DNA of 64,000 nucleotides from Acidobacteriota bacterium (GTDB taxonomy: Bacteria > Acidobacteriota > UBA6911 > RPQK01 > JAJDTT01). This document shows positions 21,942 through 43,276 of this stretch, one piece after another (position 1 is the first letter of the stretch; every line of letters starts with the position of its first letter). The position numbers and the translations under genes were made by a program. The stretch is from assembly GCA_965217775.1 (NCBI GenBank), contig CBDCJH010000002.1, positions 3,936,001-4,000,000 of the forward strand, given 5' to 3'. The notes under the pieces are model-generated. The model was given only the letters and a program-made list of their open reading frames with translations, had not been told where the DNA came from and ran no database searches.

Positions 21942-22026
21942 TGCGATCCCGTTCGGCTGGACATGGGAAAAATACAGCGTCTATGATGCATAGGAAGTCG
22001 TTCCAACTTTTACGGAGTCAAAGATC

Positions 22027-23337: not shown

Positions 23338-23349
23338 CCCGGTAGCACG

Positions 23350-24447: not shown

Positions 24448-25012
24448 TTATCTTTCCTCCTGCCGGAGTCCCGCCGGGCGATCCACGGCGGCCACGCCCA
24501 TTTCATCGATCCCTCCCAGTTTACTACGGCGCCGTCTTTCGACCGTCAAATTACGCTGCAGGTCGCGCGGCGGCGGCGGAACTCGGGACCCGAATACCAT
24601 TTTCGCCTGTCTTCCAACGGAAATCGCTCGTCGAGTTGAAGCCGAAAAATGGTTACTTACAGCGTTCGATCGCGCACCCCGCGCGCAGACCCATCGCGGT
24701 GACCACTCGTGGCAACCGGTTCCTGCGCACTATAGCCTCCGTGCGATTTGCACCAGGATTTTCAAGGTGACAGGCAGCGTTGAAGTGCGCCATGCGATTG
24801 CCGGGGAACTCCTTGCTAGTCAACTCGGCCACCGCCATTATCCGTATTCGGTTGGGTCCACCGTATTTAAGTCCGGTAGCGAATGCGGTGAGTCCGGTCG
24901 TCTTCGGTGCTAGCCTCCGACGTGCGACTCGTCCGGCAGCACCGTCCCGCCCCTGCGAGTGAGACCGAACCGGGAATCTACAGCTGTGGACTCAAAGGCC
25001 GAGTTTGCCGTC

Positions 25013-28000
25013 TTAGGCTGATCGACCACTGAGCACATCCTCGATCAACTGACTGATGGCGGATGAGTCGATGCCACCACGCCGATCATCCTGGGTGACG
25101 ATCAACGTACCATTGGCACCGCCACCTTCTTCGTGCGGCAAGATGCAGTTGTCGCGGTACCACTGTTCCTTCTCTTGCCAGCGTCGCTTGTAGTAGTCGT
25201 CCCGCAGCATGCCCAGATGCTCCCAAATATATTTCTCGCCGGTGTCGTCGTCCTCGATTGTAAAATCAGGAAACTTGTCGTAGAGAACGTCGTCGATTTC
25301 CAGCTGCTGTTCATACTCGTAGTCGATGTTCCTAACATGCAACAAGTTCGCGATGATGACCTCAGATTTGGATCGGACGAGCTCGCCGCGGGTTGTGTTG
25401 TGTATGAGTTGCTCTTCCAAAAACCTCCCCCTGAATTCGATCGGATTTGGTGGGCGGAATAGGTTGGTCAATCGACATACAACGGCCGAGTAGCGATCGG
25501 AACTGAACCGGTGCAGATCGGTGGCTGAACCCTGAAGCAGTACGACAACCTTATCCTTCTGTCGCGTGAGCGCTGTGTAGAGCAATTCGCGAGTGACCAT
25601 GAGCGGCGAACGGGGCAGGACCAGCAATACCTTGGCGAACTCGCTGCCTTGTGCCTTGTGGACGGTCAACGCGTAAGCCAGTTCAAGACCGGCTTCGCCC
25701 TCCTCCTTAAAGTCGCTATTGTAGAAGGTGAAGGACGTTCCACGCTGGGTGGAGAACTCGATCTCGAGGTTCTGGGGCCACCAGTTCCGGCTCCTCGTCC
25801 TCCGATGGCCGACGACGATCCCGATCTCACCGTTCGCCAGATAACCGCGCCCATCCGGCCTTGGATACATCCGCTGCTTGGGTACTGACCAGTTGCGATT
25901 GTTGATCACTTTGTCGCCATAAATGATCTGCTGGTCACCCTTGGGTTTCGGAATGTAACGCATTTTGCCCGGATTATGGGCAAGGTCGATTTGGCGACCC
26001 TTGTAGCGAGTGTGGATGAACCGGTTGAGCGTATCGACACCCCACGGCTTCTGGCGGACAGGGCTCAGAATCTGCCATGCTTCGGCCGCGATGCCAGCGC
26101 CTTCCCTGTCGCCGCGCTTGGGGTGGAACCAAATGGATCTGTTCCACTCGCTGCCGCCAAGTCTGATGCCGAGGGCCTGCCATTCCTCTATGTCCGGATC
26201 GAAATCCAGCGTCCGGCGCAAAACCTCGGGCAGCACCGTCTGCAGCTCGTCGGGCGTCTCCCACGAGACAAACTCGACGGTTCGGCTCGTACGCATGCCG
26301 GAAAGAATCTCAAAGACTTGGTCGTCGCCGGCGCTCGTCTCGCCGCGTCCGAACCATGAAGCGAGCAGAAGGTCGTCACCTTGGCCTGCTCCCGGACGGC
26401 GAGGAATCATCAGTTCGGCGAAACCGGAAGCGACGTGGGGTTGATCGATCGCGAAGTCTTCAGGTTTCAGATGGGCGACAATGTCCACGAATGGCCGTCC
26501 TGCGCCGATCGGCGGCAGCTGTCGGTAGTCGCCGACGAAGATCAACCGGACGACCCCGCTCAAGGATTCGATCAGAGCTGCCATCATCTCCTCGGTGAGC
26601 ATCGAGCACTCATCGACGATCACCGTCTTGGCGACCCTCTCCCCGCGTGCACCGGTCAGGAGGTACCGTTGGGTCCGGCCATCATAGCGATCCGTCAAGA
26701 TCAGGTGCTGCGCGACCGTATACGCGCGGCAGTTCTCGATACCGGCCTTCCGAGCCACGTCTTCCATCCGAACCCGAGCCTTGCCGGTCGGTGCAAGTAG
26801 AAGTACCCCACCTCTGTTGATCTCCGGTTGGGCGCATAGGATGGACAGCAAGGTGGTCTTGCCCGTTCCCGCCCGTCCGGCCAAGACACTAAAACGAGAC
26901 GACGCAAGTTCCTCAATGGCTGCGGTTTTCTCCGTGCGCGCCTTCTCCTCTCGGTCCCGTTCTTCTGTTTCATCCGGCATTTCCTTAAGGAACGCATCGA
27001 TTACCGCCCGCCAGTTCACGTCCATGCAGTGGCGCCTTGCGGCAACCCGTTTTTCGACGGTGGAGCGTATTAGGTCTCCAGCTTCGCCAAGACGGACAAG
27101 CTGATATGCCAGTTGGTTATTGGCCATCTTGACGATGCGAATCTCGCCCTGGAATACCTCATCTTCGGCGACACCAAGCAGGTCGGTCGTGATCTGGGCC
27201 GTCTGCTCCTCCCCATCTTCCTCCCCTCGACGCAGGGCGCGAACGATGTCATCTCGGGAGCGAAGCGTGTCACCGTTTCGCGCAGCAGCTTCAAGGCTGC
27301 GAATGGTCAGGGCGCGAAGCCGTCGGACATCGACAGCCGTCTTGACGAGCGACGGCTCCGGGATGGGGAATTCTTTCCGGAGCTTCGCGTTCGGAAACAT
27401 GCCGCGATCGACAACTCCGATCGAGACGGGCCGATCGGATAGGCGTGTAGCCTCGTACACGAGGTATGGGTTCTTCGTGATCTCAGCGTCCGAAGGGTCA
27501 ATTCCGTGATCTCTACGCTCGACTGGTGAGACCAACAGATCGGCCTGGTCCTGCGTTATATCCATGCGACTGAGCAGCGCGAGAAAAGCCCGACGACCAT
27601 TGTCCATTCGCTGCCAGGCCTTGGCTATCGAGTCGTCGATGTGTCGAGCCAGCTCGGGCGGCAGAAATTCATCAGGATTGTCGAGGGTCCTGAACCAAGC
27701 TGGCCAAGGGTCCGTTTCGTCGCCGATCCTATCGAGAAGTGACTGAGCGATGAAGTTGCCCATCCTGACACTCATCGCGGAGAGCACCACACCGAGTCCC
27801 GGAAACGGACCGCGTTTAATCCAAAGGCGACTCAACTCCCTGTCTATCCATCTTTCGAAGCGATCAGGCACGTACCCGAACAACTCGGAGCAGCGATGCA
27901 GCGCACTACGCATCGCCATCAGGGAACTTATCGCGGCGTCGTTTCCGACGTGCTCGGTGACGTAAGAGAACTCGACAAACCGATCTTGTGGCGCAAACGC

Positions 28001-28831
28001 TACAGCGTTCGCAGGATCGAAGGCGCGACCGTCATCACTTTTTGCCAGCGCCTCATGGTACGGAAGCAGGAAACCATCCTCGAATTCCGGCCGGATCGAG
28101 TGGACGACCATGCGCTCCCACAGAAGGCTCCGAAGCTTCTCGCCCGGCGACCGGTTGTACCGGTACTCCGTAAGGTCGCCAATCTTCTTCACGCGCCCGA
28201 CGCCGATGAGCACCCGCCGGCCCGTATCATCGACGAGTGGAACTTGCTTTGCGTAGAAAAATACAAGGGACTTTTCGGGTCGAACATGATTCCAGAAGCA
28301 GTCGAGCAAGGCGCGGTGGTTGCGATGATCCTGCAGAAAATTCGACTTGAAGGGTAACCGCGGCTCCAGCTCTGCGTTCACTTCGTCCAACGGGAACTTG
28401 TCCATGAGGCCAGCAACGCTGTTTTTCGGATCTCCGAAAACTTCGTTTCGCATCATCCACCGAAACGGGATTGCTGCCGCTCCATACGGCGGATGACGCA
28501 ATGGAGTCGGGCGAAAATGGCCGTGTGTCTGAGGACTGGTCTTGACGTAGGGATGCTGTTTCCGGTGGACGAAGTCGAAGTCAGCCATGAAGCTGGCCCG
28601 CTCGTTGACGCACGGCGGCAGCGGAATGTCCCGAGCTATCAGGTCTTCGAATGACCGGCCCTTTACGGTTTCCTCGACGCGGTCGTCCTTGGAATCCGAG
28701 ATGTTCTTCAACTTGAGACACGCTGTGTTGAACTTCGGTTCCTTGCATACGGAGCCGTTCCAGCCGTTGTCGTGCCACGGGACCCGGATGGACACATGGT
28801 GTAACGGATATGAAAAATTAATCATGTTCAA
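25013..28831 (-). CDS. RecD-like SF1B helicase with C-terminal PD-(D/E)XK-type nuclease domain
   Basis: GRAGTGKT, IVDECSM, GDYRQLPPIGAG, AYALTVHKAQGSEF and LYTALTR motifs; C-terminal VRSKSE..YEYE..PDFTI..WEHLG. Confidence 0.88.
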   Translation of the reverse strand: MNMINFSYPLHHVSIRVPWHDNGWNGSVCKEPKFNTACLKLKNISDSKDDRVEETVKGRSFEDLIARDIPLPPCVNERASFMADFDFVHRKQHPYVKTSPQTHGHFRPTPLRHPPYGAAAIPFRWMMRNEVFGDPKNSVAGLMDKFPLDEVNAELEPRLPFKSNFLQDHRNHRALLDCFWNHVRPEKSLVFFYAKQVPLVDDTGRRVLIGVGRVKKIGDLTEYRYNRSPGEKLRSLLWERMVVHSIRPEFEDGFLLPYHEALAKSDDGRAFDPANAVAFAPQDRFVEFSYVTEHVGNDAAISSLMAMRSALHRCSELFGYVPDRFERWIDRELSRLWIKRGPFPGLGVVLSAMSVRMGNFIAQSLLDRIGDETDPWPAWFRTLDNPDEFLPPELARHIDDSIAKAWQRMDNGRRAFLALLSRMDITQDQADLLVSPVERRDHGIDPSDAEITKNPYLVYEATRLSDRPVSIGVVDRGMFPNAKLRKEFPIPEPSLVKTAVDVRRLRALTIRSLEAAARNGDTLRSRDDIVRALRRGEEDGEEQTAQITTDLLGVAEDEVFQGEIRIVKMANNQLAYQLVRLGEAGDLIRSTVEKRVAARRHCMDVNWRAVIDAFLKEMPDETEERDREEKARTEKTAAIEELASSRFSVLAGRAGTGKTTLLSILCAQPEINRGGVLLLAPTGKARVRMEDVARKAGIENCRAYTVAQHLILTDRYDGRTQRYLLTGARGERVAKTVIVDECSMLTEEMMAALIESLSGVVRLIFVGDYRQLPPIGAGRPFVDIVAHLKPEDFAIDQPHVASGFAELMIPRRPGAGQGDDLLLASWFGRGETSAGDDQVFEILSGMRTSRTVEFVSWETPDELQTVLPEVLRRTLDFDPDIEEWQALGIRLGGSEWNRSIWFHPKRGDREGAGIAAEAWQILSPVRQKPWGVDTLNRFIHTRYKGRQIDLAHNPGKMRYIPKPKGDQQIIYGDKVINNRNWSVPKQRMYPRPDGRGYLANGEIGIVVGHRRTRSRNWWPQNLEIEFSTQRGTSFTFYNSDFKEEGEAGLELAYALTVHKAQGSEFAKVLLVLPRSPLMVTRELLYTALTRQKDKVVVLLQGSATDLHRFSSDRYSAVVCRLTNLFRPPNPIEFRGRFLEEQLIHNTTRGELVRSKSEVIIANLLHVRNIDYEYEQQLEIDDVLYDKFPDFTIEDDDTGEKYIWEHLGMLRDDYYKRRWQEKEQWYRDNCILPHEEGGGANGTLIVTQDDRRGGIDSSAISQLIEDVLSGRSA

Positions 28832-29041
28832 GTTGTCTGACTCCGAATTGTTACTGAAGGCATTGCGGCCGACTACTCAAGGCCAGCGTCATGGCATAAA
28901 CGAGTGACGGGGCGTATTCGCCGGCGTCCGCCCAAGCCGCTCATCTATCGCATCGCATCCTCCGGCGAGATGCACGACGGATGTCTGGTCACTCAGCATC
29001 GGCTACACCTTGTATACCAATTGTCGCTCCGCCCGGAGGGA

Positions 29042-32000
29042 CTATGGCGCCAACACCTCGATCAGCTCCGCGATCACCTGGAATTGCTCTTCTTCCGCAC
29101 CGGTAAGGACGATCGGGTCGAAGTCCGGATTCACGGGCTGGAGGATGATCGTCTCGTGGCGCCAGGAGTCATGGGACGCCACCTTCTCGCTACGGTACCG
29201 CTTCACGGTGTAGCGCTGTCCCGTCTCGGGGTCGGTGGCGTCGCGGAGTTGGACGAGGACGGTCTTCCCCTGCCGGCTGCCCTCCACCGGGGCGCGAAAG
29301 AGACAGTACGAACCATCCGGGATGGCCGGCTCCATGGACCTGCCGATGACCTGCGCGGCGAACATGCCGGGGCGCAATCGGCGGCCCGAGTCGACGGCCA
29401 CCCAATCGAATGAGTCGTCCTCGACGTGCTGTGAATCGCCGAAGGCGCCCGCCGCAGCCTTGAGTGGAAAGAGCGGCACACAGTTGACATATCGATCTTC
29501 CGGGAGACCCTCCATAATCCTCAGATGCGGTGGAAGGGGTCGTCCGGACTCCCGGCCTTCGCCCTCGCCCGAGCCGGTCCGTAGCCGACGATAGGCTTCG
29601 GAAGCCATCCAGGCACTAACGATTCGCTGGAAGGACACGTCGTTCATGTACCGAATGAAGATCTCCTCATTCTGATCCATCCGTTCGACGAACAGCCCCT
29701 CGATCTGGTTCTTGAACACCATCTCGAACTTGTCGACCGAATTCACCGAGGCAGCGTGGCGCAGGCTGTCGTCCGTCAGAGCCGCCTCGACGATCTGGTC
29801 GAAGAAGAGCTGATCGGCCTGGTTGAAATCGGTTCCAAAGCGCTCGTTGATGACGTCGATGAGTTGGGAGAGGGGTACTTCATCCTCCCTCGCCAAACCG
29901 GATCCCACCTCCGTCGGGCCGTCCAAGGACCGCGCCTTGCCTTCCTGAAGCGAGATCGAGCCCTCGCTGATCTTCTGCAGCCGATAGTACTCGAGCCGCA
30001 CCTCGTCATCGAACTGGTAGGCCGGCCCGCTCCGGCGACGCGGCAGCTTCGCCGCCAGATGGCGCAGGAAGACGTACAGACGCTCGAGATCCGAGTCCTG
30101 GTAGGGGATCACTTGGCTCAGGAACCCGTAGAGGTTGCGGAACGCCCGGACCTTGCCGCGCCAGAGTTCCGCCTCGTCCTCCTGGTCTCTCTGCAGCACC
30201 GTGAAGCGGGACACGGCCGGATCGAGCGCCGCATTCATGATTCGGTGGTCCCGAACGCTCTGGCGCTGCCTGGGCTTGAAGTACACCGAGCAGAATCCCT
30301 CCACCTCTTCATCGAGGTAGATTCCGGAGGCGTCCAGGTCTCCCTTGACCAGATACATCCGGGCGGGGTCCACCTCGTCGCCCATTTCCGCACCCTCGTA
30401 GTACGTCTTGAAGGCCTCGTGTATTTCGTCACGGTCGTTGACGAAATCGAGGACGAAGGTGTCCTCCTTCAGGGGGTGGGTGCGGTTCAGGCGCGAGAGT
30501 GTCTGGACGGCCCGGATCCCGGCAAGCCGTTTGTCCACGTACATGGTGTGCAACAGCGGCTGATCGAAGCCGGTCTGGTACTTTTCGGCTACCAGGAGAA
30601 CTTGGTATTCCTGCGTACCGAACTTCTCGGGCAGCTCCGTCTGGCGAATCCCGAGGTTCATCTTCACCTCGGTGTATTCGACACCCGAAAGCTTGTCGTC
30701 CTGAACTGCGCCGGAGAACGCGACCAGCGTCTTGATCGAGTATCCCTTCTCCTTGATGTAGCGATCGAAGCTCTGCTTGTAACGCACCGCCTCGAGCCGC
30801 GACCCGGTGACGACCATCGCCTTGGCGCGGCCCCCGATCTTGTGCCGGGTCACGGCCTGGAAGTGTTCGACCATGACCTCGGTCTTCTGTGCGATGTTGT
30901 GCGGGTGCAGACGCATGAAGCGGGCCAGCGCACGAGCCGCCCGCTTGCGCTCGACGTTGGGATCGTCCTCACAGGCCTTGAGGAGTTGATAATAGGTGAC
31001 GTAGGTCGTGTAGTGCTTCAGCACATCGAGGATGAACCCCTCCTCGATGGCTTGACGCATGGTGTAGCGGTGCATCGGCTCGCCGTTGCGGCCGAAGACC
31101 GCGAGGGTCTTGTGCTTGGGCGTCGCCGTGAAGGCGAAGAAACTCAAGTTCGCCTGCCGGCCGCGCTTCGCCATGCTGCGAAACAGTTTTTCCAGATCTT
31201 CGCGCCCTTCCTCCTTGGCGCGCACGCGAGCTTCCTCCCGAAGGCGTTCGCCCCCAAGGACTTCCTTGAGGTCCGTCGCTGTCTCTCCCCCCTGGGAGCT
31301 GTGGGCCTCGTCCACGATGACGGCACAGCGTCGTGTCGGAAGGACGCCGGTTCCCTGCTCGCCCCGCTCCTCGGCCATCTTCAAGAGTTGCCGTGACACG
31401 AACGGGAACTTCTGCAGGGTGGTGATGATGATCGGCACGGCCGTCTCCAAGGCATTGGCGAGCTGCTTGGAGCTCTTCTCTATCTTCTGCAACACCCCGA
31501 ACTTGTGTTCGAATTGGTAGATGGTGTCTTGGAGCTGCTGGTCGAGCACGACGCGGTCGGTCACGACGATCACGCTGTCGAAGATCCGCTCATTCGCGTC
31601 GTCGTGCAGCGAGGCCAGCCGGTGGGCAAGCCAGCCGATGCTGTTGCTCTTGCCGCTGCCCGCCGAGTGCTCGATCAAGTAGTTCTGTCCGACGCCGTCT
31701 GCCCGGGCCCCTTCCACCAGCGTGCGCACGGCGTCGAGTTGGTGGAAGCGCGGAAAGATCATCGTCTCGACCTTGACCTTGCGGCCACGATCATCGCGCT
31801 TCTCATTGATCTGAAGGTGGATGAAGCGCGCGAGCAGGTCGAGTAGGCTGTGGCGTTCGAGCACCTCCTCCCAGAGATAGGCTGTGCGGTAGCCGCGGCA
31901 AGCGGGATCGACCGGGTTGCCCGCCGCGCCGTCGCAGCCTTGGTCGAAGGGCAGGAAGTGGGTCGCGTTGCCGCCGAGTCGGGTGGTCATGCGCACGCAC

Positions 32001-32587
32001 TCCGTGTCGACGGCGAAGTGAACGAGGGTCCGCCGCTTGAACTCGAAGATCGGATCCCGGGGGTCGCGGTCGCGCCGGTACTGGCGCATGGCGTCTTCCA
32101 CCGTCTGTCCGGTCAGTGGATTCTTGAGCTCCACGGTAGCGACGGGGATGCCGTTCAGGCTCAGCGTGACGTCGAGTGATTTTTCCGATCGGGTTGAGTA
32201 GTGGAGCTGGCGCGTGACACCAAGCCGGTTGGCGGCGTAACAAGCCTCAAGCTGGGGATTCAGCCCATGGGCCGCCTTGAAGAAAGCCACGCGCAACGTG
32301 CGCCCGTAGCACTTGAAGCCGTGACGTAGCGTCGCGAGCGATCCATTCGCATCCATCCACTTGCACAGGTCGCCGAGCACTTGCACGGCGGTCCGGTCGC
32401 CAAGGAGCGCCTCGAGCCTTGACCATTCCTTGGGCTGGGTCTCCTGGATGAAGGCCAGGACGATCTCCGGAAAGATCGCGCGCTCGCGGTCGAAACCCTC
32501 CGACAGGACGGGCTTGTAGCCGTGATTGAGCAGGTGTGTCTCGATGACGGCCTCGAAGGCGGCTTCGGTGTGACTCTTGTGGCTCAT
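29042..32587 (-). CDS. hsdR: Type I restriction endonuclease subunit R with C-terminal S24 (LexA-like) peptidase domain
   Basis: [38 protein letters not shown] and TGFDQP motifs; tail with AAAG, GRSMEP, TVKRY and LQPVNP. Confidence 0.93.
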
Positions 32588-33234
32588 GCCGAGAGTTCCT
32601 CGAGTCGTTCATCAAGCCACCAGACGGCAACCTGACAATACGGGTTGAGCGCACCCGTCCCGGCGACGATTCGATCTCGCTCTCTCTTGAAGCGCGAGCG
32701 AGGAACCCGGCCTCGGAGTCGTGCTCTCTCAAGGCGCCACCACTTGAGGATGGCATCGAGCAATCGTTTCCGGTTGTTCTTCAAGAACGGGAGATTGAGG
32801 TTCAAAACCTGGTCGATCTGTGAATCAAACACCTGCTCGCCGGAGCGGATGCGGCCGTCCGCCTCATAGCGAACTCGCGTGTCGATGTGATGGTCTGGAT
32901 CCGCCGGGTTCCACAGAAGATCCTGGTCACCCTTGCGCGTGTCGCAGTGCTGGAGGTGCGGCGGATGTCCTTTCCCGCCGCAGCACGCGCCGAGGAGGTT
33001 CCGGTACGCAAGCTGTTCGCCGGCGTAATGGCGCTGACAATGCCAATGCTCGATCTTCATGGCCGTGCGATCATCGCCTATCCGGCCCATGCAGTAGCAA
33101 CAGATCTCGCGTTGCTCGGTTACGAGCGCATGGCGGAGGACATCCTTGTCAGCGTAGTTGTCGTAGTCGCAGTACGGCGTCTTGCGATGCACCGTCAGGC
33201 TCCGCGGCTCGGAGCCTTTGACGATTGTCCTCAA
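32584..33234 (-). CDS. ptuB: HNH endonuclease (TIGR02646/PtuB-like)
   Basis: [30 protein letters not shown] and LNLN..LKNNR motifs. Confidence 0.82.
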
Positions 33235-34547
33235 TCCTTGCCCTCCACGAAGTCAAGCAAGGTCCGCAGGTACGTCACCTCAGGGTCACTCTCCCCGAGG
33301 TGATCGACGAGCTTTTCCAGCAGATCACGGCTGCAATCGAACTGCCGAGCACTGATGGCCTGCGAAATGTCCTTAATCAGGTGCTGTACTTCCTTCGCGC
33401 GCGGGTCCGCGTCCATAATCTCCTCCAACACCCGGCTCGAATCGACGCCGAAGGAGTGCGGTGGCGGGTAGACTTGGCCAGGCGAGATGATCTGGATCCG
33501 CTCGTGCGGCACTTCCCCGATGACCTGGGGCGAGTGGGTCGTCGCGATGAACTGGCAACGAGGAAAAGCGGCCGTCAGATTGTGGACGATCTGCCTCTGC
33601 CACTTGGGATGTAGATGCAGGTCAATCTCATCGATTAAGACCGTTGCCCTGCCTTCTGCGAGTGGATCAGTGAGGTGGGGATTCGCTTGCGAAAGTCTTC
33701 GCGCAAGGTCAAGGGCGATAGACAAGATGCCACGTTCCCCATCTGACAATTGTCGTACATCAAGCGTGTCCCCAGCCTTTGTCACGAACAGCGCTGGGTT
33801 GGGCCCCTCACCTGTGCGAAGATTGCTGCATTCGGGGAGGAATCGAGCAGCCGCGGTTTCCAACGCCGCAATATGCCCCTCCGAAGCATCGTTTTCCGAT
33901 GAGAGCGCCACTTGAGCCCGCATCCAGTCGACGAACTGATCAATCTTCCATGAACGCGCAACAAGGGCGTCCGCGTAAGCTGCGGCCCGTCCTCCAGCAG
34001 CCCTTCCCTTGGAACGCCCGACAGCCAAGACTGATCGGTTCGTCGAATAGAAGACCGAAAGCGCAGGTACTGAGAGCGCTTCTGCTGCCCGGCGAAGCTC
34101 TACCTTCGAGGGTATGTACAAGTCTGAGTCAGTTAGGCCCTGCGAGCGTTCCAACTCGCGGAGAAGATTGCGAGCTCGAGCTCGCAGCCGTTCCGTTTCG
34201 AGAATTTCTCTGCGAAGTCGTTCAAGATTCTCCAGAGGCTCCGCCGCAATCTTCTGTCTCCACACGAGCCGGGTGAAGCGAAACTCTTGCTCGCCGACAC
34301 CGAAGTGCATCGTAGAATCCAAGAAGGGAAAGCCAACTCGGATGTCACCAATTTCGAACGACATTGCCTTTGCACGAGACGGGGTAATCGCGGGCAACAC
34401 CCGTGACAGACAAACTCGCAGAGCGTCGAGCACGCTCGTCTTGCCGACGCCGTTCACCCCGACGATTAGATTCACGCCCGGCCGAAACCGAAACTCTGCC
34501 GTCTTGATCGCGCGCATGTGAGCAAGCATGAGGCGGGTAACGATCAT
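33231..34547 (-). CDS. ptuA: ABC-type AAA ATPase (PtuA-like)
   Basis: GVNGVGKT, LSDGE, VLIDEIDLHLHPKWQR and TTHSP motifs; ATG at 34547 overlaps the hsdS stop. Confidence 0.85.
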   Translation of the reverse strand: MIVTRLMLAHMRAIKTAEFRFRPGVNLIVGVNGVGKTSVLDALRVCLSRVLPAITPSRAKAMSFEIGDIRVGFPFLDSTMHFGVGEQEFRFTRLVWRQKIAAEPLENLERLRREILETERLRARARNLLRELERSQGLTDSDLYIPSKVELRRAAEALSVPALSVFYSTNRSVLAVGRSKGRAAGGRAAAYADALVARSWKIDQFVDWMRAQVALSSENDASEGHIAALETAAARFLPECSNLRTGEGPNPALFVTKAGDTLDVRQLSDGERGILSIALDLARRLSQANPHLTDPLAEGRATVLIDEIDLHLHPKWQRQIVHNLTAAFPRCQFIATTHSPQVIGEVPHERIQIISPGQVYPPPHSFGVDSSRVLEEIMDADPRAKEVQHLIKDISQAISARQFDCSRDLLEKLVDHLGESDPEVTYLRTLLDFVEGKD

Positions 34548-35830
34548 TCGGCCGTCTCCACATCGATCTGGCCAGCAATGGCCGAAGCAATAAGCGCACC
34601 GCGACGTTCCTTGAGAAGCTTGACAGTGCATTCGGTCTCGGAGGAAACGGCGTCAATCTTACGAATACCCTTCTGTACCGCACCCACGATAGCCAATTGC
34701 TCCGCTTGAGGAGGTCGAAGTAAAGGCATTTCCATCAAATTGGTCACAGATATGGAGGCCAGATTCGTTGATTGCTTGGACCGACTCTCGAAATAAGCCT
34801 TCGCGTGATCACTAGTTATCCATTGAGCGAGCCAATCTGAAGAGATATCTCTCGCGCGAACAGCGAACACATGGTTCTGATGCAAGCAAGGATCGATCTC
34901 TCCGGTCCAGATAGCGCCGCGCCCCAACTTGTCGGCATCACCTCCTTCATTCATCAAGACATCGCCGGCACGTAGCAAGTATGAGCCTGCTTCCTGTTCC
35001 GGAATTGCAACGGCCTTCAAATCCGAAAGGTCCAAGAAGCCATCTTGGACGTTTGCCACTCGCAGATAGGGGTACTTCATCACTGTTCGCGACCGGTACT
35101 TTTTCCCAAGGGCAAGACCTGTTTGCACTGTGCCTACGAACTTGAGACGAGTCACCTCCCAATGCGAAGGAATTTCTCCCAGCCACGGGATGCCGGAGTG
35201 ACGGCGAGAGACGTTCAGATCGATGCTTCGGGTGACAGTCCGGCTGACCAGCGACCGGCGCTTCTCGGCAAGTAGCCCGATCACTCGCTCCTTCTCCCCG
35301 ATCAACGCATCGATCCACGATGTCTCACGGTCCAGGTAGTCGGCAATAGCACGTTGTTGCGTCAGGGGGGGGACACGTACGGAGTAATCCCGTATGTAAG
35401 CCTCGGGGACCCGCTGTTGGCCCGCTGTCCCGGTCATGCGTGCTTCACCACGGAGTCGGAAACGTGGATCAACGGTCACGTAGTATAGAAATCTACCGTC
35501 AAGCTCGGTGCTCGGCCTAAGAACGTGTAACTCTGTTGTTCCAAAACCAACTCCGTTCTTCGTACCGACTATCAATGCACCCTTACCGTTCTCGAAACAC
35601 GGAGTAATCTTCGCGACCACGACATCGCCGTCAAAGAACTGCGAGTATCCGGACTTGACATCTTCGAGACGGATAGTCGTTGCCAAGTCAAGCTGTCCCT
35701 GTTCGCCGATGGCTTCCATCGGGAGAAATGAGATCTCGGAGCGGCTGCTCAGCGAGGCGCCTTTATATTGTCTCCTCAAGGTTAGGAAGCGAAGTCGCTT
35801 TCTGGGCCACTCTCCAGTGCAGGCGGTCAC
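34544..35830 (-). CDS. hsdS: Type I RM specificity subunit
   Basis: Two target-recognition domains separated by PPLTQQRAIADYLD and SGIPWLGEIPSHWEV; C-terminal PPQAEQLAIV..ERRGALIASAIAGQID; visibly lower GC. Confidence 0.93.
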   Translation of the reverse strand: MTACTGEWPRKRLRFLTLRRQYKGASLSSRSEISFLPMEAIGEQGQLDLATTIRLEDVKSGYSQFFDGDVVVAKITPCFENGKGALIVGTKNGVGFGTTELHVLRPSTELDGRFLYYVTVDPRFRLRGEARMTGTAGQQRVPEAYIRDYSVRVPPLTQQRAIADYLDRETSWIDALIGEKERVIGLLAEKRRSLVSRTVTRSIDLNVSRRHSGIPWLGEIPSHWEVTRLKFVGTVQTGLALGKKYRSRTVMKYPYLRVANVQDGFLDLSDLKAVAIPEQEAGSYLLRAGDVLMNEGGDADKLGRGAIWTGEIDPCLHQNHVFAVRARDISSDWLAQWITSDHAKAYFESRSKQSTNLASISVTNLMEMPLLRPPQAEQLAIVGAVQKGIRKIDAVSSETECTVKLLKERRGALIASAIAGQIDVETAE

Positions 35831-37824
35831 CCCATCACCTCCCGAAGCAGCCGCAGGATTCTCTCCTCCGCCTGCTTCAGATCCGCGTCGATCTCCTCCA
35901 GCGGACGAGGCGGTGTGTACTTGTAGAAGTGCCGATTGAAGTTGATCTCGTAGCCGACCTTGTCCTTGCGGCGGTCCATCCAGGCGTCGGGCACGTGTGG
36001 CCTCACCTCACACTCGAAGTACGCTTCGATGTCCTCCTTGAGCGGCACGTTCTCGAAGTCGCGCAGGGCAGCGTCGGGCTCGTAGCCCTTGTGCCGGCCA
36101 CCCTTCGCCACAGGCTCCGCCACGGGATCCTTCTGCGTGAAGACATCGCGGAACAGCTTCTGCTCGGGCTTCTTCCACTTCGACTCCTGCTCGCGCAGCA
36201 GGTCCTGGATTCGCTCCCAGAGCACGTTCCAGTCGCGTCGTAGCCCGCGCCCGATCGCCTTGTCGATGTCTTGGACATCGTCGAGCAGGTGAGGGCACGC
36301 GTCCAGGAATCGCGCCTTGTCCTCGATGGTCATCTGGTAGCGCAGGCGTAGCGGGCGCTCGACGGTAACGCGGGTGTAGCCGAAATCGGCGTTGTCGAAG
36401 ATCTTCGAGTGGTTTCCGTCCTCGAAGCGGCCGTAGAGCTTGACGATCTGGGCGATCTGCCGCGCGGTGAGATGGCGGCGTTTGTCGCCGAGGCTGCGCC
36501 TGCTCTCCTTGCTTCCCCCGGGCGTCCATACATCGCGCGCGTCGAGGAGTTGGATCTTGCCCTTCCGCCGCTTCTCTTTGCGGTTGGTGACGATCCAGAC
36601 GTAGGTGCCGATGCCGGTGTTGTAGAACATCTGCCCGGGCAGGGCGATGATCGCCTCGAGCCAATCGTTTTCGATGATCCACTGGCGGATCTTGCTCTCG
36701 CCGGACCCCGCGCGCCCGGTGAAGAGCGGGGAACCGGACAACACGATGGCCAGACGCGACCCATACTTGTGCTCGATCGGACGGACGGGCTCAAACTTGG
36801 CGATCATGTGCTGCAAAAACAGCAGCGAGCCGTCGTTCACTCGAGGTAGTCCCGCACCAAAACGGCCCATGAATCCGCGCCTTTGGTGCTCCTCCCGAAT
36901 CTCGTTCTTCTGCTTCTTCCAGTCCACGCCGAAGGGGGGATTGGTGATGAAGTAGTCGAAGGTCTTGCCCTCGAACCGATCCTCGGTGAAGCTGTCGCCG
37001 AAGCGGATGTTACCGCTGCCGCCGTTGTGGTCCACCTGTTTCATCAACATGTCCGACGCCGCGGTGGCGAAGGCGCGCTTGTTGTAGTCCTGCCCGAAGA
37101 CGAATAGGCGTGCGGCGGCGTGGTGCTGGCGCAGGTAGTTCTGGGCCTCGGCCAGCATTCCACCAGTGCCGCAGGCGGGGTCCAGGAGCGTGCGCACGGC
37201 ACCGGGTGTCGCGAGCAGCTTGTCGTCCTCGATGAAGAGGATGCTCACCATGAGCCGGATCACCTCCCGCGGGGTGAAGTGGTCCCCTGCGGTCTCGTTG
37301 GCCAGCTCGTTGAAGCGCCGAATGATGTTCTCGAAGATCAGTCCCATCTGCTCGTTCGGGACTTGCTTCGGGTGTAGGTCCATGTCGGAGAACCTCGATA
37401 CAACGAGATAGAGGATGTTTGCTTCGTGCATTTTCTCGATCTCGGGTTCGAACTCGAAGTACTCGAAGATTCGGCGCACGTTGGCCGAAAAGCCCCGGAT
37501 ATAGCTGCCCAGATGCCGGTCGATGTGGTATGGGTCACCCCTCAGCTTCTGGAAGTCGAGGTCGGAGTGATTGTGGAAGGACTGAGCGGCCGCAACGTTC
37601 AGCCGCGCGTCCAAGGCCTGACCGACAAGCCTTTGTCCCCACCTCCTTTGTTCTGCCAGCACCTTGGACTTCGTCCGCGCAAGCACGCAGTCGAAGCGCC
37701 GCAATACGGTCATGGGCAACATGACACGCTCGTACTGCGGCGGACGGTAGGGCCCGCGCAGCAGGTCCGCGATACTCCAGATCAGGTTCGCGAAGTAGTT
37801 GTGATCAGGCATTGGTCCGCTCAT
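35827..37824 (-). CDS. hsdM: Type I RM N6-adenine methyltransferase
   Basis: IWSIADLLRG, GDHFTPREV, DPACGTGGM, NPPF, MFYNTGI and GYEINF motifs. Confidence 0.95.
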   Translation of the reverse strand: MSGPMPDHNYFANLIWSIADLLRGPYRPPQYERVMLPMTVLRRFDCVLARTKSKVLAEQRRWGQRLVGQALDARLNVAAAQSFHNHSDLDFQKLRGDPYHIDRHLGSYIRGFSANVRRIFEYFEFEPEIEKMHEANILYLVVSRFSDMDLHPKQVPNEQMGLIFENIIRRFNELANETAGDHFTPREVIRLMVSILFIEDDKLLATPGAVRTLLDPACGTGGMLAEAQNYLRQHHAAARLFVFGQDYNKRAFATAASDMLMKQVDHNGGSGNIRFGDSFTEDRFEGKTFDYFITNPPFGVDWKKQKNEIREEHQRRGFMGRFGAGLPRVNDGSLLFLQHMIAKFEPVRPIEHKYGSRLAIVLSGSPLFTGRAGSGESKIRQWIIENDWLEAIIALPGQMFYNTGIGTYVWIVTNRKEKRRKGKIQLLDARDVWTPGGSKESRRSLGDKRRHLTARQIAQIVKLYGRFEDGNHSKIFDNADFGYTRVTVERPLRLRYQMTIEDKARFLDACPHLLDDVQDIDKAIGRGLRRDWNVLWERIQDLLREQESKWKKPEQKLFRDVFTQKDPVAEPVAKGGRHKGYEPDAALRDFENVPLKEDIEAYFECEVRPHVPDAWMDRRKDKVGYEINFNRHFYKYTPPRPLEEIDADLKQAEERILRLLREVMG

Positions 37825-38049
37825 TTCACATCATCACCGCCTGCTCTTCTCGCGCGACGGTCCGCCGTTCAGAATTGTACCGCGAATAGAAACCCGGGAA
37901 CTCCCGCGCATGCGCATCGGCCTCGCGGTCCACGAACCGGACCTCCTCACCGTTCGACATGAAAACGAAAGGAACAAAGAGGACGCCACATATTTACATC
38001 AGCATGCCTCCAGGACCTGCCGCGGGCTTCGCTCCGGGGACGCGAAGGG

Positions 38050-38348
38050 ATCGACCACCCGTAGGCCGTCGAGCAAGTTGCCCGTCCTGCAAGTGCTCCG
38101 TCAGGAGAACAGCGCATTCGGCCGCCTGCGCGGTGGCGACGATGAGCGCGTCCCACCAGGAGAGGCGAAAGCGTTCCTCGAGGATCTACACTCGCCGGAG
38201 GATGGCAGGATCGATCTGGACGGGTTCCCAGACTGAGAGGGCTTCGACGATCTGGCGGGCCTCCGCAGGATCGAAGTTGAGGCGCCGGGTCAGAGGCATC
38301 GTGCCGGTAGACGAAGACGTTGGTGTCAACGAAGTCCGGGCCGGTCAT
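38050..38348 (-). pseudogene. PIN-domain (VapC-like) toxin pseudogene
   Basis: MTGPDFVDTNVFVY N-terminus; after a deletion/frame change ...RFRLSWWDALIVATAQAAECAVLLTEHLQDGQ, preceded by an in-frame stop. Confidence 0.75.
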
Positions 38349-38568
38349 ACAACTCCTCGCGCGTCGGCTTGCGGCCCTCGGGCCATTCGATCTTGCCCGG
38401 TTTCATCACTAAGTAGCGTTTCATCGCCATCTGGCAGTCGTCTTCCCGGCACCGCATCCGCTCCAACAAGTCGGCGATCCATCGGGAGATGCTACGGGCG
38501 TCTTCGGCCGCTTTGACCCGCAGCCACCGGACCAAGTCCTCCGGCAGAATGATCGTCACGTTCTTCAT
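38326..38568 (-). CDS. CopG/RHH antitoxin
   Basis: MKNVTIILPEDLVRWLRVKAAEDARSISRW...KPTREELYDR; overlaps the PIN gene start. Confidence 0.78.
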   Translation of the reverse strand: MKNVTIILPEDLVRWLRVKAAEDARSISRWIADLLERMRCREDDCQMAMKRYLVMKPGKIEWPEGRKPTREELYDRPGLR

Positions 38569-38596
38569 GGCAAGAAGTCCGAAACGAAAGGCACAA

Positions 38597-38657
38597 GAAT
38601 AACGCTCCGGCACGCCCGCCGCCCAGAGAAGAACATGCGTGTCGAGAAGGAAACTCG
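38597..38657 (-). pseudogene. Truncated N-terminus of a second VapC toxin
   Basis: Translates SFLLDTHVLLWAAGVPERYS (typical LLDTHxLLW), lacks a start codon, and is cut off after about 20 codons. Confidence 0.7.
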
Positions 38658-38659
38658 CC

Positions 38660-38900
38660 CAGGGCGCTCGAAAGGTGCCTCGATCTCGGCTGATCCCATG
38701 CGGTCAAACTCCTCCGGCAGCGAGATTTCGTGGGCCAGGAATCCGAGTCGGCCCGCCTCGGCGGGTTCCGGAACGTCCACCGCGATGACTTTGACCATCG
38801 GTTTTCCCGCATGCGCAATGATGAACGGCTCGCCATTGGCGGTGACCCGGACAAGGCGCGAGAGATGCGTCTTGGCTTCGTGCATGTTGACGGTGCGCAG
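38660..38900 (-). CDS. Phd/YefM-family antitoxin (stop codon apparently lost; ORF reads through to 38565)
   Basis: RTVNMHEAKTHLSRLV..GEPFIIAHAGKPMVKV..RLGFL. Confidence 0.75.
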
Positions 38901-39029
38901 GGCAACACCCCTTCCCTTGTCGAACTTGGTCCAAATAATTTAGTTCGAGTGTGACGGCTCTGCGAGTCCAGCGATTCCGTTTCGGAAGGCGAGTGCGAGC
39001 AAGCAAACCGGGACTGTCCCCATCTTTCG

Positions 39030-39139
39030 CCGTTTACGGTCGAAGCCCTCTACCGAGACGACGTGAAGCTATGATTCAGCAGGTGCGCCTCGATGACTGT
39101 CTCGAAGGCGGCTTCGCCAGTCCTCTTCATGATGTTCAT
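39030..39139 (-). pseudogene. hsdR: Relic 5' fragment of a second hsdR
   Basis: MNIMKRTGEAAFETVIEAHLLNH then (frameshifted) EGFDRKR, compared with the intact HsdR N-terminus [22 protein letters not shown]. Confidence 0.75.
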
Positions 39140-39354
39140 TCAAATCTCGAACGAGGCAGGCCAGACTGGCGGATTATCGACATCAACGTGCCGACACGCA
39201 CCTCTAAATGATCGGGCTCCGGGACTGTGACCGTACCGTCGGCGCCGGTCTCTTGCATTGCCACGTGGCTGCCACGCCTTCTAACCTTCACGAAACCAAA
39301 TGACTCGAGGATCCGGCAGACTTCCCGGCCCGAAAGAACGCGGAGCCTACCCAA
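39136..39354 (-). CDS. hicA: HicA-family toxin
   Basis: LSGREVCRILESFGF..RRRGSH..GTLMSIIRQSGL. Confidence 0.85.
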   Translation of the reverse strand: MGRLRVLSGREVCRILESFGFVKVRRRGSHVAMQETGADGTVTVPEPDHLEVRVGTLMSIIRQSGLPRSRFE

Positions 39355-39568
39355 CGGCGACCTCGACGCGGGTTACGTAGACTTCCCCACGCAGGCGCTT
39401 GGCGATTTCCCCGGCAGAGGCGGTCTCGAAAAACAGAGTCAGCGCTTCGGCGAGGTTGTCGCGTGCTTCGGACACGGTGTCGCCTTGGCTGACGACATCC
39501 ACTTCCGGGCACAGGGCAACGTATCCATCTCCTTCGCGTTCGATGATCGCAGTCAACTGCCTGTTCAT
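39347..39568 (-). CDS. hicB: HicB-family antitoxin (short form, no DNA-binding domain)
   Basis: LTAIIEREGDGYVALCPEVDVVSQGDTVSEARDNLAEALTLF. Confidence 0.88.
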   Translation of the reverse strand: MNRQLTAIIEREGDGYVALCPEVDVVSQGDTVSEARDNLAEALTLFFETASAGEIAKRLRGEVYVTRVEVAVG

Positions 39569-39783
39569 GGTGTGTCTCCAATTCTGCACGTAACCTAACT
39601 GACGTCCGGCTCGCGGAACTAGACTATCATCAGCATCAAATTCGAGGGCCATTAACAAGCAATTCGCGCGGCAGGCGCCACGGGAGGCATATGGGGAGTC
39701 CGTCATCGAGGAGAAACGGTGCCCGCCGCCGGGCGCCGTGGCCCGAATGGACAGTCTCCGGGCCGGGAAGTAGAATTCCGGCC

Positions 39784-40863
39784 ATGTCACGCCTGACTTC
39801 CATCGTTGCGATTTTTCTGGCCCTTGGGACCATGCTCCCGGGCCAATCCGAAACCCGGCGCTACCTCTATATGAGCACGCCGGACGGAGCTCAGGTGGAG
39901 GGCCGATCGGGAACCGGAATCCTCATCTTCGATATCGACGACGGCCACAAGTTCGTCCGGAGGATCCACATCCCCATTTTCCAGGAAGGACTTCGAGGCT
40001 TCACGGGGAGCCTGATCAACCACGCCGTCTACTACTCCACGACCAACCACCGCCTGGGCGCCTTCGACCTGGAGGCGGAGAAGATCCTGTGGGAGAACAC
40101 CTTCGCGCCGGGATGCTGCGATCGCTCCTCCATCACCATGGACGGCAAGAAAATCTACGCGCCCACCGGATTCTGGTACACGGACGACGACGCCGGCTTC
40201 GTCGTGGTCAATGCCCAGAACGGAGAATTCATCAAGCGGATCGCCGTGGGCCCCAACGCCCACAACAGCATCGTGAGCCTGGACGGGCGGCATGTCTTCC
40301 TGGGAACCCGGACCATGCTGACCATGTTCGACACCCGGGACGACAGCATCGTCCGCCAGATCCCCGACGTGGGCGAATACATGATTTTTCCGTACACCGT
40401 CACGCGCGACCACAGCCTGGCCTTCGTCTGCCTGGGGAAACACGTGGGGTTCGACGTGGTCGATCTGAAACAGGGCAAACTCCTGCACCGGGTCTTCGCC
40501 GGCGCGGAGAAAATTCGTCATCGGACCCACGGCGCCGGCCTGACGCCCGACCACAAGGAACTGTGGATCAGCGACCAGGCGGGCCGAAAGCTCTTCTACT
40601 TCGACGCCACCCGGATGCCGCCCCGGGAGATGGGCCACGTGAATCTTTCCATCGGAGGCCATGGCTGGGTCACCTTCAGCCTGGACGGCAAGTACGTCTA
40701 CTCCCACGCGCCCGACATCTTCGACGCCAGGACCAAGAAGCGTGTCGGCATCTTCCGCGATGAAGAGGGCCGCCCCTTCGCCAGCTCCAAGTTCATCGAG
40801 GTGCATTTCCGGGACGGCAAGGTCGTCACCATGGGGAACGAGTTCGGACTCGGCCGTCATTGA
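39784..40863 (+). CDS. Secreted YncE/YVTN-like beta-propeller protein
   Basis: Signal peptide; repeated DGKKIY, AHNSIVSLDG, THGAGLTPD and FSLDGKYVY blades. Confidence 0.65.
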   Translation: MSRLTSIVAIFLALGTMLPGQSETRRYLYMSTPDGAQVEGRSGTGILIFDIDDGHKFVRRIHIPIFQEGLRGFTGSLINHAVYYSTTNHRLGAFDLEAEKILWENTFAPGCCDRSSITMDGKKIYAPTGFWYTDDDAGFVVVNAQNGEFIKRIAVGPNAHNSIVSLDGRHVFLGTRTMLTMFDTRDDSIVRQIPDVGEYMIFPYTVTRDHSLAFVCLGKHVGFDVVDLKQGKLLHRVFAGAEKIRHRTHGAGLTPDHKELWISDQAGRKLFYFDATRMPPREMGHVNLSIGGHGWVTFSLDGKYVYSHAPDIFDARTKKRVGIFRDEEGRPFASSKFIEVHFRDGKVVTMGNEFGLGRH

Positions 40864-40889
40864 TCCGCATTGCTCACCGGAGGTCCATC

Positions 40890-42053
40890 ATGAAACGACG
40901 CTTCCGTGCCCCATTGCTCACCCGCCGCGGCATGGTGAATTCCACTCTCCTGGGCCTGGCCGGTATCGGCGCGGCGAAGGCATCGCCGTTGGGGCCGCCG
41001 GCCCCGGTATCAGCCGGCGCCGAGGGTACGGACCACCTCGTCAACATGGACCAGGTCGAGCGTTTCGTCGCCGTCGACAACAAGTGTGCGTGGCCCAACC
41101 TGACCCTGATGCCCGACGATTCCATCGTCGCCACCATCTTCGGGAGTCCCTGCCACGGCTTCTGCGACGGAGCCGCCGAGTGCTGGAGAAGCGAGGACGG
41201 CGGCCGCATGTGGAACTTCGTGAGCATTCCGGCCCCGAACGAACCGGGGACCAACCGGAAGGACCTGGCGGCCGGCCTCACGCCGAAGGGCTCCTTCGTC
41301 GTCCTCTGCAGCGGCTCCAAGGTGGCTCCTCCCGATCCGGTCACCCGCATGAGACCCATACTGCAATCGGTGGTCTGCCGTTCCACCGACGGCCTCAAGA
41401 CCTGGACCTGCCGGAGCAGCCTGGAACTGCCCCCCGGCGCGGACCACGTCATCCCCTTCGGCGACATCGCTGCCCTGCCCGGGGGACGGCTCGCCGTGAC
41501 CGGCTACACCGGCGACCACATCACCAAGAACACGGCCTGGGTCTTCTTCAGCGATGACGATGGACGCACCTGGGGCAACCCCCGCCCCCTGGGGGTGGAC
41601 GACTTCAACGAGTCGACTCTGCTCGTCACCGGAGGGAACCGGCTCCTGGCCGCCACCCGGACCCACCGGAACAGTCATACCCACATCTCGGTCTCGGAAG
41701 ACGCCGGACAGACCTGGAGGCATCTGGGACCCGCATCCCTTCCGGGACAGATGCCGGCCAACCTCATCCGGCTGCAGGACGGGGGGATCCTCCTCACCTA
41801 TGGGTCCCGGCTGCGGGGAATGTTGGGTGTCTTCGCGCGCATCAGCCGCGACGAGGGCCTGACCTGGGGCGCGCCGAGGGTGCTCTTCAACACCACGGCG
41901 CGCCGGGCGAACACGCGGCCCGGCGGCACCGACGGCGGCTACCCCTCCAGCGTGCAGTTGAAAGACGGCACCATCGTCACCGCCTACTATTGCCAGCGGA
42001 TCCCCATGCACCAGCGCTACCACATGGGCGTGGTCCGGTGGCGGGTCTCGTGA
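40890..42053 (+). CDS. Sialidase-like Asp-box (BNR) protein with Tat signal
   Basis: TRRGMV; Asp boxes SEDGGRMW, SDDDGRTW, SEDAGQTW, SRDEGLTW; DGGYP. Confidence 0.8.
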   Translation: MKRRFRAPLLTRRGMVNSTLLGLAGIGAAKASPLGPPAPVSAGAEGTDHLVNMDQVERFVAVDNKCAWPNLTLMPDDSIVATIFGSPCHGFCDGAAECWRSEDGGRMWNFVSIPAPNEPGTNRKDLAAGLTPKGSFVVLCSGSKVAPPDPVTRMRPILQSVVCRSTDGLKTWTCRSSLELPPGADHVIPFGDIAALPGGRLAVTGYTGDHITKNTAWVFFSDDDGRTWGNPRPLGVDDFNESTLLVTGGNRLLAATRTHRNSHTHISVSEDAGQTWRHLGPASLPGQMPANLIRLQDGGILLTYGSRLRGMLGVFARISRDEGLTWGAPRVLFNTTARRANTRPGGTDGGYPSSVQLKDGTIVTAYYCQRIPMHQRYHMGVVRWRVS

Positions 42054-42086
42054 GCGTGCGTTGAAGAAGTCGGGGTCGGTGCCGGC

Positions 42087-43232: not shown

Positions 43233-43276
43233 TGCCAGCTCCGTGGAAAAACCGCGGCAGCGGCCGCCGCGGACGC

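Follow-up and report, generated by a model that had tools for sequence, protein, structure and literature searches.

Does a Septu nuclease pair encoded inside a type I restriction-modification (RM) operon work together with the restriction enzyme, or is it simply carried along by it? The question is raised by a stretch of 64,000 nucleotides (nt) from an Acidobacteriota bacterium (contig CBDCJH010000002.1, positions 3,936,001 to 4,000,000; hereafter the window, in whose own numbering coordinates are given), where ptuA and ptuB, the genes for a Septu ATPase and HNH nuclease, lie between hsdS and hsdR. As described below, the lineage to which this PtuAB pair belongs lives almost only in the hsdS-hsdR slot and has diversified along with the flanking hsd genes; it travels between phyla with these genes, once on conjugative plasmids. 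The co-location of Septu and restriction operon suggests joint working without proving it.

A Septu gene pair within a type I RM operon

Five intact genes, all on the minus strand (37824..29042), follow one another in the order hsdM-hsdS-ptuA-ptuB-hsdR (lengths in amino acids, aa):

35827..37824, minus strand: hsdM, 665 aa; Pfam HsdM_N and N6_Mtase; PADLOC MTase_I PDLC03029, E 1e-256, full length
34544..35830, minus strand: hsdS, 428 aa, GTG start; PADLOC Specificity_I PDLC03072, E 5e-103, residues 7-426; Pfam Methylase_S
33231..34547, minus strand: ptuA, 438 aa, ATG start; PADLOC PDLC00271, E 5e-113; Septu ABC/SMC-type ATPase
32584..33234, minus strand: ptuB, 216 aa, TTG start; PADLOC PDLC00322, E 2e-69, residues 1-213; Septu HNH nuclease
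29042..32587, minus strand: hsdR, 1181 aa, ATG start; Pfam HSDR_N, SWI2_SNF2, T1R_D3-like and ResIII

Each of the four junctions is a 4-nt overlap of start and stop codons, reading GTGA (hsdM/hsdS), ATGA (hsdS/ptuA), TTGA (ptuA/ptuB) and ATGA (ptuB/hsdR), and purine-rich runs are found immediately 5' of the starts at all four. A first-pass annotation, made from the letters of the window, had proposed these gene identities, their order and the 4-nt coupling, and had described the five open reading frames (ORFs) as intact with their motifs. Family models and a reading of the junctions bore out the former, and all catalytic motifs were found; for the ATPase and HNH ORFs, it is the PADLOC models for PtuA and PtuB listed above that identify the products. 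A scan for promoters and terminators between 24500 and 39800 returned sites no commoner than in shuffled sequence, so the boundaries of the operon are set by gene spacing only.

The reading frame of ptuA extends without a stop as far upstream as 34631. The PADLOC PtuA models all start aligning at residue 29 of this frame, which supports the ATG at 34547 as the ptuA start. The protein has the motifs of a Septu ATPase (Walker A GVNGVGKT, signature LSDGE, Walker B LIDE, and TTHSP) and matches Pfam AAA_21, SMC_N, AAA_15 and AAA_23; its sequence matches in the Protein Data Bank (PDB) are the retron Ec83/Ec78 PtuA proteins and Septu PtuA 8ee4, with E values of 1e-31 to 1e-35. PtuB, whose gene lies directly 3' of ptuA and is present once in the genome, has the motifs CxxC, EHW, RNLL and HCD of the Septu HNH nuclease. 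Its NCBIfam matches stay under the cut-offs (NF041761, E 6.5e-26; TIGR02646, 48.7 bits against a cut-off of 52.15), and it gave no Pfam match and, by phmmer, no PDB match. Both PtuA and PtuB score below the NCBIfam equivalog cut-offs for the PtuA and PtuB of retron-Ec78. The first-pass annotation had also noted that the window lacks a reverse transcriptase, and the 13 RVT_1 matches in the genome all fall outside it (0/13 inside), retron non-coding RNA (ncRNA) not having been searched for. Eleven RVT_1 matches of 120-125 bits lie on contig C2 of the source genome, ten in frames of 522-526 aa and one in a 381-aa frame; the nearest (C2:3930174-3930872) lies some 5 kb ahead of the window and is one of a group of 526-aa frames that are almost identical to each other. 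Eleven such similar copies are as expected of a multi-copy mobile retroelement.

The hsd genes make up a type I RM system, with an N6 adenine methyltransferase (HsdM; NPPF at nt 36931-36942), a specificity subunit with two target-recognition halves (HsdS) and a restriction subunit (HsdR; PD-(D/E)xK nuclease and superfamily 2 motor, with motifs GSGKS and DEAH) in one operon. HsdM reaches 70.9 bits against the NCBIfam hsdM cut-off of 242.75, and HsdR 194.9 bits against 284.55 for TIGR00348. Since both proteins fall under these curated cut-offs and have only remote relatives of solved structure in the PDB, the system is assigned to an atypical Hsd family. The HsdM C-terminus (residues ~473-665; 35827-36410, minus strand) runs about 190 aa past the methylase domain and has no Pfam match; PDLC03029 spans the whole length.

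The PtuA lineage is nearly confined to hsd operons

Relatives of the window PtuA were collected after 25 homologues had been aligned. Two sets of loci, the best 80 of 580 confirmed relatives (one genome per species) and the best 80 of 558 confirmed relatives on metagenome contigs, were read as six-frame ORFs searched with the window proteins. In a FastTree phylogeny of 142 full-length PtuA rows from both samples (19 short rows left out), the window falls in a clade of 51 rows (support 98). Apart from one stand-alone row (L021) and one that is unreadable (L174), all rows of this clade lie in the hsdS-hsdR slot of a single atypical Hsd family; that is, 49 of the 50 readable members are embedded, a near-confinement like that of PrrC (see below), as against 2 of the 91 rows outside the clade (L037 and L066). 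An IQ-TREE phylogeny of 77 genome rows (4 short rows left out) places the window in a clade of 25 (SH-aLRT 98), 24 of them embedded. On this tree the embedding label changes four times, compared with a mean of 22 after shuffling, and none of 500 shuffles matched the observed value. The rows of these trees are kin, not independent. The first-pass annotation had left it to a phylogeny to say whether hsd-embedded PtuA copies group together or near homologues mostly occur without hsd genes; the copies do form a clade, and the near homologues are found almost entirely with hsd genes.

All loci with a PtuA more than ~35% identical and a readable flank have the arrangement hsdM-hsdS-ptuA-ptuB-hsdR with the same Hsd family (HsdM 750-1270 bits; full-length HsdR 1440-2220 bits), bar L021, where ptuAB stands alone with genes for a kinase and for menaquinone as neighbours, and L176, which lacks an hsdR after ptuB. 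The second gene encodes PtuB at every locus tested; where phmmer missed it, PADLOC assigned all ten proteins scanned (10/10) to another PtuB subtype, PDLC00346. The two embedded rows outside the window's clade lie in another PtuA clade, and L066 carries a different HsdR subclade as well, so that PtuAB has entered this slot a second time, independently. Judging from record titles, the hosts belong to the Acidobacteriota, Alpha- and Gammaproteobacteria, Spirochaetota, Cyanobacteriota, Bacteroidota, Chloroflexota and Verrucomicrobiota. In Ketogulonicigenium vulgare WSH-001, all five genes are annotated on plasmid 1, which is conjugative.

Pairwise identities were compared over the 21 loci in which PtuA, HsdM and HsdR are all complete. 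PtuA identity correlates with that of HsdM (r 0.88) and of HsdR (r 0.76; Mantel test, 0/2000 permutations as high), while HsdM and HsdR correlate with r 0.91. At a mean identity of 41%, compared with 65-69% for the Hsd proteins, PtuA is the faster evolving. In a tree of 64 HsdR rows, 24 of 25 PtuAB operons fall in a single subclade of 29 (support 100). The junctions of the 26 embedded genome loci are listed below; a junction was called tight when the genes overlap or lie within 20 nt (<=20 nt), the start taken being the in-frame start closest to the upstream stop, a rule that favours tight junctions.

hsdS/ptuA: tight in 25 of 26 loci, other in 1
ptuA/ptuB: tight in 24 of 24 loci, other in 0
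ptuB/hsdR: tight in 16 of 23 loci, with 281-2733 nt of extra DNA in the remaining 7
hsdM/hsdS: tight in 15 of 23 loci, other in 8

Because the rows are kin, both the junction counts and the correlations overstate independence. At one further locus, an M78 gene stands after ptuB (L180, 1106-2251).

The operon lies on a strain-specific island

The surroundings of the operon include the following features:

24530..40900: strain-specific island with the PDC-S68 gene, the five-gene operon and small ORFs
25013..28831, minus strand: RecD-like superfamily 1 helicase, 1272 aa; PADLOC candidate PDC-S68 (PDLC05065, E 0, 1507 bits); Pfam AAA_30, AAA_19 and UvrD_C_2
39065..39115, minus strand: relic of an hsdR 5' end, 51 nt, about 1.2 kb upstream of hsdM

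The flanking segments 22000-24529 and 40900-43300, which are 16.4 kb apart here, are separated by 1.2-2.1 kb in five of five genomes of the same genus; the operon, the PDC-S68 helicase gene and the small ORFs therefore form a strain-specific island of 14-15 kb. Its GC content (0.55-0.62) is lower than that of the flanks, and no integrase, tRNA or flanking direct repeat was found at its edges. The helicase gene is directly downstream of hsdR. A homologue likewise follows hsdR in L003 (15200-18994), and another lies near ptuB in L176 (2523-4301, minus strand). The small ORFs between 37.9 and 40.9 kb have no Pfam or PADLOC match. The relic is part of a 53-nt direct repeat, 85% identical to 32515-32567, and corresponds by tblastn to HsdR residues 8-24 (76% identity, E 4.6e-4 in a 3-kb search space), suggesting a scar left by recombination where the cargo slot meets the 5' end of hsdR. 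The locus is a conserved composite defence operon that was acquired horizontally.

Coupling to the Hsd complex and its alternatives

The reading we favour, with a probability of roughly 0.45, is that PtuAB of this lineage functions coupled to the Hsd complex. Septu and retron PtuAB cut tRNA-Tyr and act by abortive infection (PMC13096335 for Septu). By analogy with these characterised Septu and retron type I-A systems, the restriction enzyme would be the first line of defence, and PtuAB a second-line abortive-infection nuclease cutting tRNA or DNA. The lineage would have come to rely on the Hsd complex, most likely on HsdM/HsdS, for restraint or sensing, and PtuAB would fire once the restriction enzyme is blocked or lost, following the logic of PrrC and Ronin. 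Ocr, ArdA and Stp, which the first-pass annotation put forward as triggers, are guesses to which no result here points. In favour of coupling, PtuAB has been kept in the slot across phyla down to ~33-36% PtuA identity while other slot cargo turns over fast, and such long retention amid fast turnover suggests selection for linkage; PtuAB has, moreover, been captured into the slot twice. The asymmetry in the data, with a PtuAB lineage almost never found without the slot and a slot often filled otherwise, is expected of an RM-dependent accessory. The same asymmetry can also follow a single capture of an autonomous module carried by a mobile operon.

A number of observations weigh against coupling, beginning with a search made in the converse direction. 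In 401 genomes of the window's phylum, HsdR relatives with E <= 1e-100 were found in 59, with 73 matches in all. Clade-type PtuA adjoins HsdR in only two of the 59 genomes, the window's own and G363, whose locus duplicates one already among the PtuA-sample loci. Forty of the 73 HsdR loci were taken by rank, contig-start matches and several second copies being skipped, and PtuAB was present in one of the 40. Within this phylum sample, even the PtuAB-bearing HsdR subclade has PtuAB in just two of seven members, and HsdR proteins 80% identical to that of the window (L111, L112) are accompanied by M78/HTH (helix-turn-helix) cargo instead. The following genes occupy the hsdS-hsdR and hsdM-hsdS gaps, taken together:

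L111, 9724-10905: M78/HTH (ImmA/IrrE-like) cargo, alone
L112, 4302-6203, and L115, 3640-5332: M78/HTH cargo followed by DUF4411
L116: Fic-like cargo
L135: GmrSD cargo
L141: RhuM-Fic cargo, PDC-S23
L145: AlbA_2 protein cargo

The M78/HTH genes, which give weak RmrA/CapP matches, are the commonest alternative hsdS-hsdR cargo in the closest HsdR relatives. Five loci have no cargo in either gap (L120, L121, L128, L134 and L147, with hsdM undetected in the last). Since the gaps hold varied cargo or none, the slot is a hotspot for cargo in general, and PtuAB is not required by the RM system; the Hsd proteins are not specialised for it. Consistent with a slot open to unrelated systems, DarTG2 occupies the same position in an RM operon of enteropathogenic Escherichia coli (EPEC; PMC12255303). 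On the side of PtuAB, cloning the stand-alone Septu of Ec-B88 by itself, with 300-bp flanks, was enough for defence (PMC13096335), which means that PtuAB in general can do without a partner, and the embedded PtuA is of ordinary Septu type I length and best model, with no extra domain. The arrangement itself varies: L011 and L163 have no hsdR downstream of ptuB, in L168 hsdM is followed directly by ptuA with no hsdS, and the extra DNA at seven ptuB/hsdR junctions and the rule used in choosing starts both detract from the tightness recorded above. Shared inheritance alone could produce the identity correlations. The first-pass annotation had suggested that PtuAB may be an effector guarded by the RM system, with the Hsd complex in place of the retron as sensor. 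The hsd-confined PtuA clade supports this in part; against a dedicated partnership, the Hsd family is mostly without adjacent PtuAB and its slot holds other cargo.

Much of this would be accounted for if a self-sufficient Septu had landed once in an RM recombination hotspot and had since been co-inherited, making use of the operon promoter and translational coupling while acting independently, its defence being layered on, and additive to, that of the restriction enzyme. The many unrelated cargos of the slot and its frequent emptiness, the replacement of PtuAB in close HsdR relatives, the hsdR relic upstream of hsdM with its hint of recombination at the slot boundary, and the presence of the operon on a 14-15 kb island and on conjugative plasmids all fit such a history, as do the autonomy of stand-alone Septu (PMC13096335) and the selfish linkage benefit that Payne et al. 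propose for embedded systems. A free two-gene system should often escape, however, yet only one of the 50 readable clade members lies outside an hsd operon, and this near-confinement persists though PtuA identity drops to ~33-36% and the hosts belong to many phyla. We regard autonomous carriage as a substantial possibility, if on balance a doubtful one.

A different kind of cooperation, in which PtuA would sense DNA ends made by HsdR, or stalled translocation complexes, and the HNH nuclease would finish degrading the invader DNA, could draw on the relationship of PtuA to Rad50/RecF/SMC ATPases, on the tight ptuB/hsdR junction in 16 of 23 loci and on the reported ability of Septu PtuAB to cut DNA in vitro. 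It is difficult to reconcile with tRNA-Tyr being the reported in vivo target of both Septu Ec-B88 and retron Eco7 and with the two loci that have hsdMS-ptuAB and no hsdR; DNA-end sensing is suggested by none of the results, and we consider it improbable. Less probable still is that PtuAB serves as an addiction module, which would stabilise the RM island through the death of cells from which it is lost. Post-segregational killing is a property of RM systems themselves, and the operon does reside on an island peculiar to the strain and, elsewhere, on conjugative plasmids; against this, neither an antitoxin-like partner nor an instability element came to light, and the PtuAB families are established phage-defence effectors.

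Were PtuAB indeed dependent on the Hsd complex, PrrC would no longer be the sole natural example of a suicide nuclease that guards a restriction enzyme, and PtuAB would be a PrrC-type guard that evolved independently, from a retron-type effector. One effector pair would then be wired to differing sensors, a retron in one case and an RM complex in the other, which bears on the evolution of layered immunity and of anti-anti-restriction. The operon is compact and is also annotated in the cultured, harmless bacterium K. vulgare WSH-001, making the arrangement readily testable.

A LexA-like tail on HsdR

The C-terminal end of the window HsdR carries an additional domain:

29042..29461, minus strand: S24 domain of HsdR, residues ~1043-1181; AAGAF at 29441-29455, GRSMEP at 29327-29344, VKRY at 29195-29206

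This tail matches Pfam Peptidase_S24 over residues 1043-1175 with 30.9 bits (gathering cut-off 23.3). It is present on 10 of the 64 HsdR rows (the window, L002, L009, L010, L012, L014, L111, L112, L113 and L117), six with PtuAB and four without, and AAGAF, G.SMEP and KRY are invariant in all ten. A search among long proteins with the tail only gave 1812 proteins at E <= 1e-5. Among the 120 of these that were listed, whose tails are 70-94% identical to that of the window, 69 have an HsdR body; by precomputed Pfam assignment, the 51 that do not are 49 type ISP enzymes and 2 DEAD-box/PF09369 proteins. G.SM.P and [VLI]KR[YF] occur together in 118 of the 120, and the exact AAGAF in 96. The tail found no match in the PDB by phmmer. 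A tail profile returned 10 LexA chains among 11 PDB matches, but these are weak (E 0.12-0.99), and an AlphaFold model of the tail from the 10-sequence alignment is too uncertain to use (mean pLDDT 37). The literature search did not turn up a paper on an HsdR-S24 fusion. A sister HsdR clade (L126, L128-L133, L146, L148 and L149) carries another C-terminal extension, ~170 aa long and conserved at its end, presumably akin to an AlbA_2/Schlafen-type domain; L132, the second hsdR copy of the window's own genome, belongs to this clade.

We take the tail motifs to correspond to the Ser-Lys dyad and the Ala-Gly cleavage site of LexA. The N-terminal fragment of LexA, which ends in Ala-Ala, becomes a substrate of ClpXP, and the predicted cleavage at the Ala-Gly site of the tail would leave HsdR ending in ...KAAA. 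In view of these resemblances, the S24 tail may be an off-switch for restriction (alleviation), thrown by SOS/RecA-triggered self-cleavage. Restriction alleviation of EcoKI runs through ClpXP (PMC4231737). If the suggestion is true, it may account for the way in which certain ATP-driven restriction enzymes escape self-damage after DNA injury other than by EcoKI's ClpXP route. Joined to the proposed coupling, this would give a picture in which a Septu lineage gave up its autonomy, HsdM2S1 (with or without HsdR) holds PtuA-PtuB inactive, and the HNH nuclease is set free to abort infection when Hsd is lost or when DNA mimics or other anti-restriction proteins appear. The S24 tail, shared with type ISP enzymes, would be a RecA-triggered switch tying restriction alleviation to SOS, its cleavage leaving the body of HsdR with an Ala-Ala end that would serve as a ClpXP-type degron. 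That all of these parts should hold together seems unlikely.

Comparison with known systems

That defence systems can lie within type I RM, BREX, DISARM and Hma operons is already published, under the phrase 'guilt by embedding' (Payne et al. 2024). The hsdS-hsdR slot has been named as a likely hotspot, Septu is commonly embedded in Hma, and the backup logic of PrrC is in print as well. The literature search brought up no account of Septu proteins that form a lineage restricted to type I RM, although the supplementary tables of Payne et al., which lie outside the text covered, may list Septu among the systems embedded there. The concept of embedded defence and the RM-linked effectors of PrrC or Ronin style are thus already in print, and the window operon is a lineage-specific variant of known systems.

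PrrC, an anticodon nuclease, offers a parallel in position. In the EcoprrI operon (hsdM-hsdS-prrC-hsdR) an ABC-ATPase-based RNA/DNA nuclease likewise fills the hsdS-hsdR slot, and its lineage is likewise nearly confined to type I RM; it is the precedent for an RM-linked suicide effector (PMC2610378). Payne et al. report the same asymmetry for PrrC, RM without effector being common and effector without RM rare. PrrC is a single polypeptide with a different nuclease domain, and its masking by the RM enzyme and activation by Stp have been shown by experiment, whereas those of the window pair are proposed. Ronin (RonA with an HsdMS decoy) and EcoR22I are cases of RM-linked cell death set off by anti-restriction proteins (10.1101/2023.04.06.535777). 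In Ronin a membrane peptide of 61 aa serves as effector, and most systems lack hsdR, whereas the lineage described here has PtuAB for its effector and in most cases an hsdR; the hsdR-less hsdMS-ptuAB form of L011 and L163 recalls the Ronin layout.

In retrons of type I-A (Ec78/Eco7 and Ec83, equivalent to Septu type II), PtuA and PtuB are effectors kept inactive by a linked sensor module. The retron PtuA structures are the nearest solved ones by sequence, but the proteins are 542-552 aa long as opposed to 438 aa here, and the alignment is limited to residues ~197-434. A retron of this type needs a reverse transcriptase and an ncRNA beside ptuAB, and the former is absent from the window, as described above. 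Septu type I resembles the window pair in its proteins, in the ptuA-ptuB order, in the ATPase and HNH motifs, in the best PADLOC models and in the absence of a reverse transcriptase. It is free-standing (as in Ec-B88 and E. coli ATCC 25922; PDB 8ee4), whereas in the lineage of the window the pair lies inside a type I RM operon, to which it is coupled in translation.

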